Positions 1,043 through 6,030 of a DNA stretch of 51,419 bases are shown here, one piece after another. Source of the DNA: Acidimicrobiales bacterium (GTDB lineage: Bacteria; Actinomycetota; Acidimicrobiia; Acidimicrobiales; JAMCQF01); contig DAHXND010000180.1 of NCBI GenBank assembly GCA_027366675.1, forward strand, positions 1 through 51,419. Direction: 5' to 3'. Under the pieces are notes generated by a model. It saw only the letters and a list, made by a program, of their open reading frames with translations. It made no database searches and was not told the DNA's origin. A program made the translations under genes and the position numbers. The number at the start of each line of letters is the position of its first letter. Position 1 is the first letter of the stretch.

Positions 1043-1891
1043 ATGGCACTTCCCGTCCAGAAGCTGGGGACCGTCTATGACGAGCGCCGGGCGGTGATCG
1101 ACCCTGACAGAGCAAAGGCGTACGCGGCGGCGACGAACGACGATAATCCCGCGTACCTGAGCGGGCGGCTCGCTCCTCTGGTATTCGGAGTCGTTCCCGT
1201 CTGGGAAGCCATGAGCCTTGCTGTAATGGATGTGGTGCCGGCTGATGCCCTGCTCATGGTTGTCCACGGCGAGCAGGACATGCACTTTCTGGAGCCCCTT
1301 GTCCCGGGTGCCACCCTCGTCACCCGTGCGGAGGCCTACAACATTCGTGTGGGCAGCTCTGGGTCACGTTTCGCTGTCAAGTCCACGAGCAGGGATGCCG
1401 ATAGTGATTACGTGGTCCTGGAGCAATATGCCACCATGTTCGTCCGGGGCATGAGCGATGGCGAGAGCGGTGGCCCCGATCTGCCTGACCACTCGTTCCC
1501 GGAGGCTGTTCGGTCCGATGAGGTCGGCAGTTTCGGCGTGCACGTAGATAAGGACCAGACGTATCGCTACGCCGATGCCTCGGGGGATCCCATGCCCATA
1601 CACCTGGACGAGAATGTGGCCAGGAGCGTAGGGCTCCCGGGCATCATCGCTCACGGGCTCTGCACCATGGCTATGACCAGCCAAGCGGTCGTGAAGCTGG
1701 CGGCTGGCGGTGACCCCGCTCGGGTGAGGCGTCTTGCGGTTCGCTTCGCGAAGCCTGTCTTCCCGGGTAATGATGTGGTCACCACGATCTACGAGGCCGG
1801 CTCAGCGAACGGCGGGAGGGCATACGCTTTCGAAGCTGAGAGCGCCGGTGCCCAGGTCATCGTGAACGGGCGCGCCGAGGTGAGCTTGTGA
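1043..1891 (+). CDS. MaoC-family double hot-dog dehydratase / (R)-specific enoyl-CoA hydratase
   Basis: The N-terminal half (YAAATNDDNPAYL) and the C-terminal half (YADASGDPMPIHLDENVARSVGLPGIIAHGLCTMA) are both typical MaoC hot-dog motifs. AGGAG lies 7 nt upstream of ATG 1043. The track ORF starts at 1013. Confidence 0.8.
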   Translation: MALPVQKLGTVYDERRAVIDPDRAKAYAAATNDDNPAYLSGRLAPLVFGVVPVWEAMSLAVMDVVPADALLMVVHGEQDMHFLEPLVPGATLVTRAEAYNIRVGSSGSRFAVKSTSRDADSDYVVLEQYATMFVRGMSDGESGGPDLPDHSFPEAVRSDEVGSFGVHVDKDQTYRYADASGDPMPIHLDENVARSVGLPGIIAHGLCTMAMTSQAVVKLAAGGDPARVRRLAVRFAKPVFPGNDVVTTIYEAGSANGGRAYAFEAESAGAQVIVNGRAEVSL

Positions 1892-2025
1892 AGCCGTGGA
1901 GGCCGGCTACAGGACGGCGGGTCGAGTAAAGGAGCGGGTCCACCAAGGGAGGATCCCAGCTGGCCTTCCAGGCGGAGCATCTCTGGGTGGAGAGCCTCAA
2001 GTGGCTCGCAGGAGCGGGTCCAGAG

Positions 2026-2126
2026 CAGTGAAGCGTAAAGCGAGCAGGAGTCCCCCGCCTGGCTCCTCGCTGGCAAGCATCTCATCAGAGGAGGCAGCAG
2101 TGAAGCGTGAAGGGAGCAAGGGTCCC
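2026..2126 (+). repeat. Imperfect 30-nt direct repeat (2026-2055 and 2097-2126, 26/30 identical) inside a 454-nt non-coding gap
   Basis: The copies are gcagtgaagcgtaaagcgagcaggagtccc and gcagtgaagcgtgaagggagcaagggtccc. A second 12-mer, ggagcgggtcca, repeats at 1931-1942 and 2012-2023. Confidence 0.85.
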
Positions 2127-2345
2127 GGAGACGGGGTGCCGGTAGCTCCGCCGCGTGTGTGGGCGGAGAGACATGGACGGGCGTCACTAGGTCTGGCAGG
2201 GATTATGAGATTTATCGGCCCACCTGCTTCCCCCGGGGCCTCGTTCCTGTGGGCTCGCTATTCGCTACCTGGTGACAAGCCGTCGCAGGGGCGATACGCT
2301 TGCACTCATGGGGTGCGCCAGGTCGGCAGTCTTCCGGGGTTCTTC

Positions 2346-2921
2346 ATGGAGGTAGAGCGATCTTCCCGTCTCGAGCTCCTCAGGGACCCTGGCTTCCTTG
2401 CCAATCTCGGATCCCTGTCGAACGCCGAGTTGCGTGCGCTGCGCTCTGGATGCGCGGAGGTGGAGGTCGTGCTGTCCTACGTTCGCCGCCTCGCTCAGGC
2501 TCGTTCCGATATCCTGGCGTCCCTGATGGAGCAGCTCGCGGACGGCGTGACCGCTGAAGAGGCTGCCGGAGGCGTGCGTGAGCACCTACCCGAGATCCTT
2601 GGAGCCCAGGAGAGGCCACCGGGCATGGGGCACATGACGGAGCTCTTGGCCCCGGACCAGGAGGATCCTGACTACGAGCGCCTCCTCGATGCCTTGGACG
2701 CGATAGTGGACGGCGATGAGCTCGGGCGTCTCGGTGACCTTGCGGCTACCGGGATAGAGAATCTCGAAGTGATACACAGTGCTCTGGTGGAGTTCGAGGC
2801 AGGAGTCTCGTCGGAGCGCCGCCGCCTCCACGAGGTGATCGATAACATCCAGAGCGAGATGGTTAGTCGCTACCGCTCGGGTGCCGCTCTCGTGGACGAG
2901 ATCCTTGCGGAACGGCCATGA
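2346..2921 (+). CDS. rsiG: RsiG-like anti-sigma factor candidate (c-di-GMP-binding coiled-coil family, often annotated as aerial mycelium formation protein)
   Basis: The 191-aa protein starts at ATG 2346. It contains E40-x3-S-x2-R-x3-Q-x3-D55 (EVVLSYVRRLAQARSD), an exact match to the published RsiG c-di-GMP motif E(X)3S(X)2R(X)3Q(X)3D. A second copy lies 111 residues downstream with Q replaced by H (EAGVSSERRRLHEVID). The 150 codons upstream in the track ORF (from 1896) look non-coding. Confidence 0.6.
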   Translation: MEVERSSRLELLRDPGFLANLGSLSNAELRALRSGCAEVEVVLSYVRRLAQARSDILASLMEQLADGVTAEEAAGGVREHLPEILGAQERPPGMGHMTELLAPDQEDPDYERLLDALDAIVDGDELGRLGDLAATGIENLEVIHSALVEFEAGVSSERRRLHEVIDNIQSEMVSRYRSGAALVDEILAERP

Positions 2922-2964
2922 GGAACCAGCCAGGTGGCCGGTTATCTCGTATGGAGATCGGCTG

Positions 2965-3495
2965 ATGGATATCCCCGACAGGTGGCGTGACCTCGGGGAG
3001 TTCATCAGGGAGCAGCGGAACACCGCTCGGCTGTCGCTACGGCGCCTGAGCGAGCTCGCCGGCATCTCGAATCCCTACCTGAGCCAGATCGAGCGTGGGC
3101 TACGACGGCCATCCGCAGAGATACTCCAGCAGATAGCCCGGGCGCTCAGGATCTCGGCTGAGACGTTGTACGTCAGAGCGGGGATCCTCGAGGAGCGTGA
3201 CGGGGAAGTGGATGTTCCCCGGATGATCCTGGCCGACCCCCACTTGAGCGAGGACCAGAAGCAGGCGCTCATACGGATCTACCTCTCTTTTCGCTACGAG
3301 AGTGATTCGGCGCTCGCTAGCGCACCCGGGCAGTGGGAGGGATCTTCCGAGGTAGGCCATAGCCTCGATTCCGAAGATCGTGGACCGGTTGTGCCCGGGG
3401 ATCAGCCGGCATACCAGGGGGATGACTCGCCATCCGGCAACTCTGCTCCAGAGCAGCTGGGTCAGGTCGAGGCAGGCGGCGTCGCGATAGCCTGA
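2965..3495 (+). CDS. XRE-family helix-turn-helix transcriptional regulator
   Basis: LGEFIREQRNTARLSLRRLSELAGISNPYLSQIERGLRRPSAEILQQIARALRISAETLY is a canonical XRE/Cro HTH. ATG 2965 was chosen over the track start at 2881, which overlaps the rsiG end. The C-terminal roughly 60 aa are low complexity. Confidence 0.7.
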   Translation: MDIPDRWRDLGEFIREQRNTARLSLRRLSELAGISNPYLSQIERGLRRPSAEILQQIARALRISAETLYVRAGILEERDGEVDVPRMILADPHLSEDQKQALIRIYLSFRYESDSALASAPGQWEGSSEVGHSLDSEDRGPVVPGDQPAYQGDDSPSGNSAPEQLGQVEAGGVAIA

Positions 3496-3576
3496 GGGCC
3501 CAGGATCCCGTGCCGGCTCCCGGGCCAGGCGCTCGGTCTGGCGAGGCCGCTGCCGGCAGGAGGGCCGGGAGCGCTT

Positions 3577-4878
3577 ATGCTCCCTGGCGTGCATCGGATT
3601 GCTTTCATCTGCCTGCACACGTCGCCACTGGCCCAGGCAGGATCTGGTGATGGCGGAGGTATGAACGTCTACGTGCGCGAGCTCGCCACTGCGCTCGCCC
3701 GCGGTGGCGACGAGTGCCTGGTGTTCACCCGAGCGGACCGGAGCGGTCTCCCCGAGCGGGTCGAGGTCGAACCTGGCTTCGTGGTGCACTACCTGAGAGC
3801 AGGACCAGAACGCGGGCTGCCGAAGGGGGAGCTGGCGGGCCATGTGGAGGCGTTCACCGATGCCATGGCTGATGTGCTCGAAGATGCGGGCGGCTGTGAC
3901 ATGCTCTTTGCCCACTACTGGCTCTCCGGCCTGGCTGCTCATGCGCTGAAGCACGAGCTGGAGCTTCCACTCGTTACCACGTTTCACACTCTCGCTCGGG
4001 TGAAGGAGCAGGCCGGCACCGGCTTACCGGCCCCGCCAGCCTCAGATCTCGCCGGTCTTGCTTCCTTCCCGATGTCACGTTTCGGGGATGATCCCGCGTG
4101 GCGGGCAGATGCCGAAGAGGAGATCGTCAGCTGCTCTGATGCCCTGATCGTGTCCACGCCCGTCGAGGCCAGGCAGCTCGCGGATCTTTACGGAGCAGAC
4201 CTCGCACGGGTGGCTGTGGTGCCACCTGGGGTGGATCCGGCATATTACGGGCCCGGCGATCAGGCGCAGGCCAGGCGAGCGCTGGGACTCGGCATCGATG
4301 ACCCGCTGTTGCTTTTCGTAGGGCGGATCCAGCCCCTGAAAGGCGCGCCCGTGGCAGTGAGGGTGCTTGCCTCGGTGAAGGAGCAGGGCGTGAACGCCCG
4401 GCTGGTGATACTAGGTGGCCCGAGCGGCCCGGATGGCGAGAGCGAGCTTGCCAGGATACACGATCTCGTCGACGGTCTCGGCCTCTTTGGATCGGTCAAG
4501 TTCGTCGAGCCCCAGCCGCACGAGCTGCTCCCGACCTTCTACAGAGCTGCAGACGTTTGCTTGATGCCGAGCCGCTCCGAGTCCTTCGGCTTGGTAGCTC
4601 TGGAGTCTGCAGCCTGTGGTGTGCCTGTGGTCGCCTCGGCTGTAGGTGGCCTCACCAGCCTGGTGCTGCCGGCCAAGACCGGCATGCTAGTGGGTCCAGA
4701 CGACATAGACGGCTTCACCAGTGCTGTCATGGCGTTGCTGACTGGTCCGGCCTGGCGCAGGGAGATGGGGCGTAGAGCAGTAGCCCGTGCCAGGTCTTAC
4801 CGCTGGGACGCTGCCGCTATGGGTGTGCGCCGCATCTGCGAGCGCCTTAGGGGAGAGAAGCCGGTGGTGTGCCGGTGA
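3577..4878 (+). CDS. mshA: D-inositol-3-phosphate glycosyltransferase (mycothiol biosynthesis, GT4)
   Basis: N-terminal signature HRIAFICLHTSPLAQAGSGDGGGMNVYVRELA plus the GT4 C-terminal core (PSRSESFGLVALESAACGVPVVAS). Confidence 0.8.
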   Translation: MLPGVHRIAFICLHTSPLAQAGSGDGGGMNVYVRELATALARGGDECLVFTRADRSGLPERVEVEPGFVVHYLRAGPERGLPKGELAGHVEAFTDAMADVLEDAGGCDMLFAHYWLSGLAAHALKHELELPLVTTFHTLARVKEQAGTGLPAPPASDLAGLASFPMSRFGDDPAWRADAEEEIVSCSDALIVSTPVEARQLADLYGADLARVAVVPPGVDPAYYGPGDQAQARRALGLGIDDPLLLFVGRIQPLKGAPVAVRVLASVKEQGVNARLVILGGPSGPDGESELARIHDLVDGLGLFGSVKFVEPQPHELLPTFYRAADVCLMPSRSESFGLVALESAACGVPVVASAVGGLTSLVLPAKTGMLVGPDDIDGFTSAVMALLTGPAWRREMGRRAVARARSYRWDAAAMGVRRICERLRGEKPVVCR

Positions 4879-5835: not shown

Positions 5836-6030
5836 ATGAAGGCACGACAGCCCGAGACGCGGTTTTTGACCGTCGGCGAGGTGGCAGAGATGTTGCGCGT
5901 CTCCACCATGACCGTTTACAGGCTGATCCGGCAGGGAGAGATTCCCGCGGTGCGCGTGGGGAAGTCGTACCGCTTGGTGAAGGAAGACTTCGATCGCTAC
6001 CTGGCGGATCGTTACACGCGAGCTGGTTGA
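5836..6030 (+). CDS. Excisionase/MerR-type small helix-turn-helix DNA-binding protein
   Basis: FLTVGEVAEMLRVSTMTVYRLIRQGEIPAVRVGKSYRL is the excisionase-family HTH. Its position directly after proC matches the conserved actinobacterial proC-HTH arrangement. Confidence 0.8.
   Translation: MKARQPETRFLTVGEVAEMLRVSTMTVYRLIRQGEIPAVRVGKSYRLVKEDFDRYLADRYTRAG

Follow-up and report, generated by a model that had tools for sequence, protein, structure and literature searches.

A predicted twin-motif RsiG anti-sigma factor and its candidate WhiG2-type partner in a flagellated Acidimicrobiales-like bacterium

The gene at positions 2346–2921 of the window, the whole 51,419-nt stretch of DNA that was analysed, very probably encodes a monomeric twin-motif RsiG that is armed by c-di-GMP and sequesters the WhiG-type sigma factor encoded on contig C118 of the same genome. 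The protein belongs to the RsiG family, carries both motifs, has the predicted fold, and shares its genome with a partner sigma factor and with c-di-GMP enzymes. The original prediction, made from the DNA alone, was of an RsiG-type c-di-GMP-dependent anti-sigma factor; it is well supported by the Pfam match, by the sequence match in the PDB, by the predicted fold, and by a genome that also encodes a WhiG2-type partner and c-di-GMP enzymes.

Results

A gene for RsiG in an Acidimicrobiales-like genome

The window is contig C12 of a 2.48-Mb metagenome-assembled genome (MAG; G000, 85% complete, 234 contigs). The host is an uncultured, flagellated, small-genome, Acidimicrobiales-like bacterium. It belongs with the Actinomycetota: in a species-representative collection, the loci closest to its whiG come from Acidimicrobiia and Microthrixaceae MAGs (52–60% identity), and the genes around rsiG (MshA-like GT4, ProC, BldC-like, Rex, and HemA) show actinobacterial synteny. 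We noted that the closest WhiG2-type genes (59–60% identity) include, alongside Acidimicrobiia MAGs, two loci titled 'uncultured Burkholderiales bacterium' (L008 and L009; CAZFAO010000007.1 and CAYMMG010000009.1); these titles are probably taxonomic mislabels.

The longest open reading frame in the frame of rsiG begins at 1896, and the gene caller's product is a 273-aa protein with a start upstream of 2346. We placed the start at ATG 2346 because the N-termini of 35 homologues align at this position. The upstream starts that would give 273-aa and 341-aa proteins were rejected, since the homologues begin at the M1 position. The features of the gene and its product are:

2346–2921 (+): rsiG, predicted twin-motif RsiG anti-sigma factor, 191 aa (Pfam PF22802, phmmer versus 6pfj_T, homologue N-termini)
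2421–2540 (+): helix alpha1, residues 26–65, predicted antiparallel coiled coil (AlphaFold2, pLDDT 94–97)
2463–2510 (+): predicted c-di-GMP binding motif 1, E40, S44, R47, Q51, and D55 (translation; alignment with 6pfj_T)
2598–2666 (+): predicted linker loop, residues about 85–107, counterpart of the RsiG loop folded over c-di-GMP and WhiG, with residues unlike those of Streptomyces (pLDDT 59–77)
2754–2876 (+): helix alpha5, residues 137–177, predicted coiled coil (AlphaFold2, pLDDT 93–98)
2796–2843 (+): predicted c-di-GMP binding motif 2, E151, S155, R158, H162, and D166 (translation; alignment with 6pfj_T)

The protein matched the Pfam RsiG family (PF22802) in two domain stretches, at 67.6 bits against a gathering cut-off of 27 (E = 7.6e-19). 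A phmmer search of the PDB retrieved 6pfj_T (E = 2e-10), with query residues 20–188 aligned to chain residues 21–176; chain T of 6PFJ/6PFV is S. venezuelae RsiG, deposited under the name "AmfC". Similarity to a characterised RsiG, which the original prediction had put forward as a check, thus reaches well beyond the short motifs. NCBIfam has no RsiG model and gave only noise matches for the query protein.

Translation of 2346–2921 returned both motifs at the residues and nucleotides first assigned to them. Motif 1 reads E40-VVL-S44-YV-R47-RLA-Q51-ARS-D55 (nt 2463–2510, EVVLSYVRRLAQARSD) and motif 2 reads E151-AGV-S155-SE-R158-RRL-H162-EVI-D166 (nt 2796–2843, EAGVSSERRRLHEVID). In the phmmer alignment, both motifs are in register with those of S. 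venezuelae RsiG, and H162 lies opposite Gln173 of helix alpha5. Residues that contact WhiG in S. venezuelae (roles from PMC7005675) are mostly kept in the 6pfj_T alignment: Y69 corresponds to Y45, R54 to R30, R57 to R33, D142 to D131, and Y187 to Y176. By contrast, three residues of the S. venezuelae c-di-GMP loop are not kept (S108 to E, H110 to P, and S112 to G), and the contacts of the loop to c-di-GMP must therefore differ from those in Streptomyces. S. venezuelae R115 lies opposite H96 here, while most order-mates have Arg at that position (loop consensus RxxGxGRLP).

An AlphaFold2 model built from a 36-sequence alignment (mean pLDDT 89.2, pTM 0.82) predicted the antiparallel coiled coil that the original prediction had suggested looking for, with the motifs in mid-helix. 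R47 is 21 residues from the start of helix alpha1 and R158 is 19 residues from the end of helix alpha5; in this model the two motifs therefore face each other as an antiparallel pair. A Foldseek search of the PDB gave only four matches with E < 0.001, all of them RsiG chains of 6PFV and 6PFJ (probability 1.0, TM 0.69–0.71 normalised to the target, 30–34% identity); the next match had an E value of 0.65. The predicted structure thus has the antiparallel coiled-coil fold that is unique to RsiG. An earlier claim that the two-helix spacing is that of Streptomyces RsiG stood in part: both motifs are in mid-helix and in register in the model, but they are 111 residues apart, versus 98 in S. venezuelae (motifs at 64–79 and 162–177; PMC7005675), because the linker is longer here. 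The single-motif homodimeric form of RsiG was also considered and rejected, as this 191-aa protein carries two motifs and matches Pfam RsiG in two stretches. As judged by sequence and model, the protein is a true twin-motif RsiG, a full-length relative of S. venezuelae RsiG.

The neighbourhood of rsiG

Two features flank the gene:

1892–2345 (no strand): 454-nt upstream gap between a MaoC-like gene and rsiG (no Rfam family; not kept in G001)
2965–3495 (+): XRE-family HTH regulator (Pfam HTH_3, E = 1.4e-13, and HTH_31)

The ATG of the XRE gene at 2965 lies 43 nt after the rsiG stop, just as first described. A scan of 1800–3700 gave no terminator-like site between the two genes and no sigma-70-like promoter upstream of rsiG, and the XRE gene may be co-transcribed with rsiG. 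An Rfam search of 1700–3100 (E up to 1) found neither a riboswitch, such as a c-di-GMP riboswitch, nor another RNA family upstream of rsiG. The upstream gap holds an imperfect direct repeat of roughly 30 nt. In a genome of the same family (G001), the MaoC-like gene is absent, and a short gap from a TraR/DksA-like gene takes the place of the 454 nt.

The order rsiG-(XRE)-MshA-like GT4-YbjN-ProC-...-Rex-HemA is kept in an NCBI MAG (L006, without XRE), in a JGI contig, and in G001, where it starts rsiG-XRE-mshA. Among 12 plus-strand order-mate loci, the gene directly after rsiG encodes an XRE regulator in five, a GT4 protein in two, and a response-regulator receiver in one. XRE is hence a frequent but not obligatory syntenic neighbour of rsiG, and nothing in the neighbourhood comparison ties it to the RsiG-WhiG switch. 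We also noted that a response-regulator receiver gene directly follows rsiG in L051, and that the JGI contig of P0003 has such a receiver gene directly after rsiG, with an HD/HD_5-domain gene next in line. The product of this HD gene is possibly a c-di-GMP phosphodiesterase of the HD-GYP type, and that would be a hint of a local c-di-GMP module near rsiG. Further along the window, 5836–6030 (+) encodes a 64-aa MerR/excisionase-type DNA-binding protein that is BldC-like by eye; its gene is flanked by proC and a SAM-hydrolase-like gene and forms part of the conserved actinobacterial stretch mshA-proC-rex-hemA.

A WhiG2-type partner and c-di-GMP enzymes

No TIGR02479 match lies on the rsiG contig, in agreement with the original prediction that the window holds no WhiG-type sigma gene. 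The same prediction had proposed a search of the whole genome for a WhiG/FliA-type sigma factor and for diguanylate cyclases, and both were found. TIGR02479 matches in the genome are confined to contigs C118, C66, C8, C115, and C147, and those other than the one on C118 are SigA/SigB-like or ECF sigma factors. The C118 gene (8650–9537, minus strand; 253 bits against a cut-off of 189.6) encodes the sole FliA/WhiG-family sigma factor above the cut-off; it scored 280 bits against S. venezuelae WhiG (6pfv_A) and 143 bits against FliA. Genes for c-di-GMP turnover account for six GGDEF matches (at least five proteins) and five EAL matches. Profile searches of the assembly, which is 85% complete, found no other FliA-type sigma factor and no FlgM, a short protein that is hard to detect.

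The C118 protein keeps K57, G61, and R62 as well as the sigma-4 contacts L236, Y239, E240, and L242, while T235 is replaced by Leu (residue roles from PMC7005675 and bioRxiv 10.64898/2026.01.14.699351). K57, G61, and R62 contact c-di-GMP and set the RsiG-regulated WhiG2 apart from WhiG1 (bioRxiv 10.64898/2026.01.14.699351). The C118 whiG gene directly adjoins rpsB-tsf-pyrH-frr. In S. coelicolor too, whiG (SCO5621) lies close to rpsB-tsf-pyrH-frr (SCO5624–5627). The C118 sigma factor is classed as WhiG2-type from its signature residues, score class, and rpsB synteny, rather than from a tree. One position of the interface deserves mention: WhiG R43, which in the Streptomyces complex forms a salt bridge with RsiG D142 (PMC7005675), is Glu in the C118 protein, with Lys at 42, while RsiG keeps the Asp (D131). 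The interface may thus be slightly shifted.

Of 61 genomes of the order, 45 encode RsiG, and in every one of them the Pfam domain gives two adjacent matches. Across these 61 genomes the FliA_WhiG (TIGR02479) matches fall into two score classes, of 246–287 bits, which includes the C118 sigma factor, and of 157–211 bits. RsiG-positive genomes carry the higher class, except for G046 (no match) and three matches truncated at contig ends; RsiG-negative genomes lack it, apart from two that are 70–74% complete. The lower class is often encoded on the flagellin contig, yet it also occurs in many genomes without flagellin. Flagellin, RsiG, and only the high-scoring sigma class come together in seven genomes (G000, G019, G038, G044, G049, G051, and G053), and G019, G038, G049, G051, and G053 are 93–99% complete. 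Two other genomes of the host's family likewise have only a WhiG2-class sigma factor.

Candidate WhiG promoters at motility genes

The genome was scanned with the published WhiG2/sigma-28 consensus, TAAA-N15-17-GCCGATA. Four exact sites were found, none of them in the window; each precedes a motility gene by 93–155 nt, the genes being flgB, flbD, fliC, and one for a type IV pilin:

Contig C200, 6266–6292 (+): exact consensus site
Contig C200, 17754–17780 (+): exact consensus site
Contig C225, 4599–4625 (-): exact consensus site
Contig C107, 5284–5310 (+): exact consensus site

On C200, flgB heads a flagellar cluster whose other genes include flgC, fliG, fliI, flgE, and motB. The other identities rest on Pfam FlbD (E = 9e-24) for flbD, Flagellin_N and Flagellin_C for fliC, and an N_methyl motif (GFTLIELLVV) for the pilin. 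A fifth site, with one mismatch, lies upstream of a second pilin-like gene (C151, 953–980, minus strand). In the same genome a reversed-pattern control gave two sites versus four for the strict pattern, and support therefore comes from where the sites lie, not from their number. A WhiG-like site at 1377–1403 of the window was set aside as chance: it is intragenic in the MaoC-like gene, has a weaker -35 element (TCAA), and lies 940 nt from rsiG.

In a scan of 16 flagellated order-mates, the strict sigma-28 pattern was enriched in G002, G049, and G027; at the flagellin genes that could be placed, including those of genomes with only the WhiG2 class, no site lay immediately upstream. The regulon claim is thus limited to the host's own genome and, weakly, to its family. 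Given promoter sites at motility genes, and given that neither a second flagellar sigma factor nor FlgM was found, the switch probably gates motility genes. On balance, we lean towards flagellar and type IV pilus genes as the transcriptional output of RsiG-WhiG in this bacterium. WhiG targets in other actinobacterial families are already predicted to include motility, chemotaxis, and pilus genes (bioRxiv 10.64898/2026.01.14.699351), so this would extend a known principle, not introduce a new one.

A different output is possible, though on the whole unlikely. The RsiG could be canonical while the missing 15% of the genome encodes an undetected sigma factor of the WhiG1/FliA type that drives the flagellar genes, leaving RsiG-WhiG2 to control other genes, for example pili only, or genes for DGCs and PDEs as is predicted in other actinobacteria. 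The assembly is, after all, 85% complete and in 234 contigs, and about half of the RsiG-positive order-mates do have a second, lower-scoring FliA_WhiG match, which lies on the flagellin contig in G012, G015, G016, G025, G027, and G029. Moreover, the promoter consensus published for WhiG1 overlaps with that for WhiG2 (bioRxiv 10.64898/2026.01.14.699351). Nevertheless, the four sites fit TAAA/GCCGATA, the WhiG2-type consensus, rather than CTCA/GCCGAACT, and the flagellar contigs C200 (22 kb) and C225 (12 kb) contain no sigma match. The two same-family genomes with WhiG2 as their only class also speak against an undetected flagellar sigma factor, as do the five flagellated, RsiG-positive order-mates of 93–99% completeness that have the WhiG2 class only.

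The stacking residue of motif 2 is His or Phe across the order

The original prediction regarded His in motif 2 as an intermediate or variant state between the single- and two-motif forms, and this did not hold. The RsiG motif has been published as E(X)3S(X)2R(X)3[Q/H](X)3D, and His and Gln have been judged equally suited to stacking on the rotated guanine, the substitution having been seen in helix alpha1 (PMC7005675, PMC8325347). Twin-motif RsiGs have been reported for three of four Acidimicrobiales species (PMC8325347). We compared 30 order-mate rsiG loci (L025–L054), each from a different family, taking in each case the coding stretch that spans both Pfam domains. The motif-1 position is Gln in 26 and His in 4, whereas the motif-2 position is His in 19, Phe in 11, and Gln in none; among 36 metagenomic homologues (30–43% identity), 31 have His at the latter position. 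Gln in motif 1 with His in motif 2 is, in these alignments, the commonest configuration in the order, and His falls within the published motif; the protein is no intermediate between single- and twin-motif forms.

Published logos, drawn mostly from Streptomycetaceae, Pseudonocardiaceae, and Geodermatophilaceae, show Q-to-H variation in helix alpha1 only (Schumacher et al. 2021, PMC8325347). What is new relative to the literature is that the predicted alpha5 stacking position in this order is His or Phe, never Gln, which suggests that any flat stacking side chain suffices. The E, S, R, and D residues of both motifs are near-invariant across homologues and order-mates; in motif 1, the homologues show no variation at E, S, and R. 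In three order-mate loci (L039, L045, and L053) the first Glu of motif 1 is replaced by Ala or Gly.

The same substitutions could be read as signs of an altered ligand response, with weaker, absent, or different c-di-GMP binding in an RsiG-family protein that acts as a constitutive or differently regulated anti-sigma factor. H162 does stand in for the Gln173 equivalent, S108, H110, and S112 of the Streptomyces loop are lost, and Phe in 11 of 30 order-mates implies that the motif-2 position is free to vary. We nevertheless regard this reading as quite improbable. The base-specifying Arg and Asp, together with Glu and Ser, are intact in both motifs; His and Phe are both good stacking residues, and His, as noted, is held to be equivalent to Gln and is frequent in RsiG helix alpha1 (PMC7005675, PMC8325347). 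The WhiG residues that touch c-di-GMP are also kept. That the two motifs arose by chance or convergence in an unrelated coiled-coil protein can practically be dismissed: short motifs can recur in helical, Arg/Glu-rich proteins, but resemblance to RsiG extends over the whole length (Pfam, phmmer, and Foldseek), and E...S..R...[QH]...D had just four further matches besides the two in the 191-aa RsiG, six in all, in the six-frame translation of the genome (ORFs of at least 60 aa, 3.19 million residues). By this count, two RsiG motifs in one protein are far beyond chance.

Discussion

By analogy with the Streptomyces and Rubrobacter structures, we infer that the protein binds c-di-GMP and sequesters its sigma factor. 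In the mechanism that we favor, c-di-GMP-armed sequestration of the C118 WhiG, a monomeric RsiG would present two long antiparallel helices with one E-x3-S-x2-R-x3-[Q/H]-x3-D motif each, and the two motifs would jointly form a clamp around a partly intercalated dimer of c-di-GMP. The guanines would be read by Arg and Asp, while Q51 and H162 would stack on the outer bases. At high c-di-GMP, loaded RsiG would sequester the genome's single sigma-28-family factor (WhiG2-type, encoded beside rpsB on another contig), and a drop in c-di-GMP would set WhiG free. If the output is motility genes, high c-di-GMP would turn these genes off.

rsiG at 2346–2921 is an ordinary RsiG orthologue, from a group for which the family is already on record, and the gene itself adds little, as the published [Q/H] motif allows for its His. 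The order-wide comparison adds two minor points of possible specialist value. First, His or Phe, never Gln, at motif 2 extends the published logo, whose variation is confined to helix alpha1. Second, the host and at least six order-mates have flagella and RsiG together with a WhiG2-class sigma factor only. A broader proposal is about as likely as not: in this and several other flagellated Acidimicrobiales lineages, the sole sigma-28-family factor would be the RsiG-regulated WhiG2, with no FlgM, and c-di-GMP-armed RsiG, its alpha5 stacking residue being His or Phe and never Gln, would gate flagellar and type IV pilus promoters. If true, c-di-GMP would act on motility directly at the level of transcription, via sigma-28, possibly the ancestral role of the switch. 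c-di-GMP would then shut off flagellar transcription directly, through an anti-sigma-28 factor, and this would fill the FlgM gap noted in flagellar clusters of actinobacteria. RsiG may be a functional replacement of FlgM in flagellated Acidimicrobiales.

Comparison with known systems

The closest characterised relative is the monomeric twin-motif RsiG of S. venezuelae (vnz_19430, 'AmfC'; PDB 6PFJ/6PFV), which has the same Pfam family, the same alpha1/alpha5 motif architecture, and the coiled-coil fold predicted here, at 30–34% identity over about 170 residues. Equivalents of the WhiG-contact residues (Y69, R54, R57, D142, and Y187) are found in both systems, as are K57, G61, and R62 of the partner. 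Both proteins have Gln in motif 1, whereas at the motif-2 stacking position Gln in S. venezuelae contrasts with His here. The S. venezuelae linker is shorter (motif spacing 98 versus 111), and the protein described here has an order-specific RxxGxG[R/H]LP-like loop. In a flagellated host with a small genome, the likely output would be motility genes and not sporulation as in Streptomyces.

Rubrobacter radiotolerans RsiG (PDB 7LQ2–7LQ4) belongs to the same family and has the same helix-alpha1 motif, although its sequence match is weak (E = 0.19). With about 85 residues and one motif, it acts as a homodimer and controls type IV pili, whereas the protein described here carries the two helices on a single chain; a type IV pilin gene is among the predicted WhiG targets in both. 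The twin-motif RsiGs of Acidimicrobiales (Schumacher et al. 2021) share taxonomic group and architecture with this protein, and its gene is best seen as a further orthologue.

FlgM, the classical anti-sigma-28 factor, would have the same role, holding back a flagellar sigma factor, if RsiG-WhiG gates flagellar promoters. The fold and mechanism of FlgM are unrelated to those of RsiG: FlgM is exported via the hook-basal body, while it is c-di-GMP that arms RsiG.
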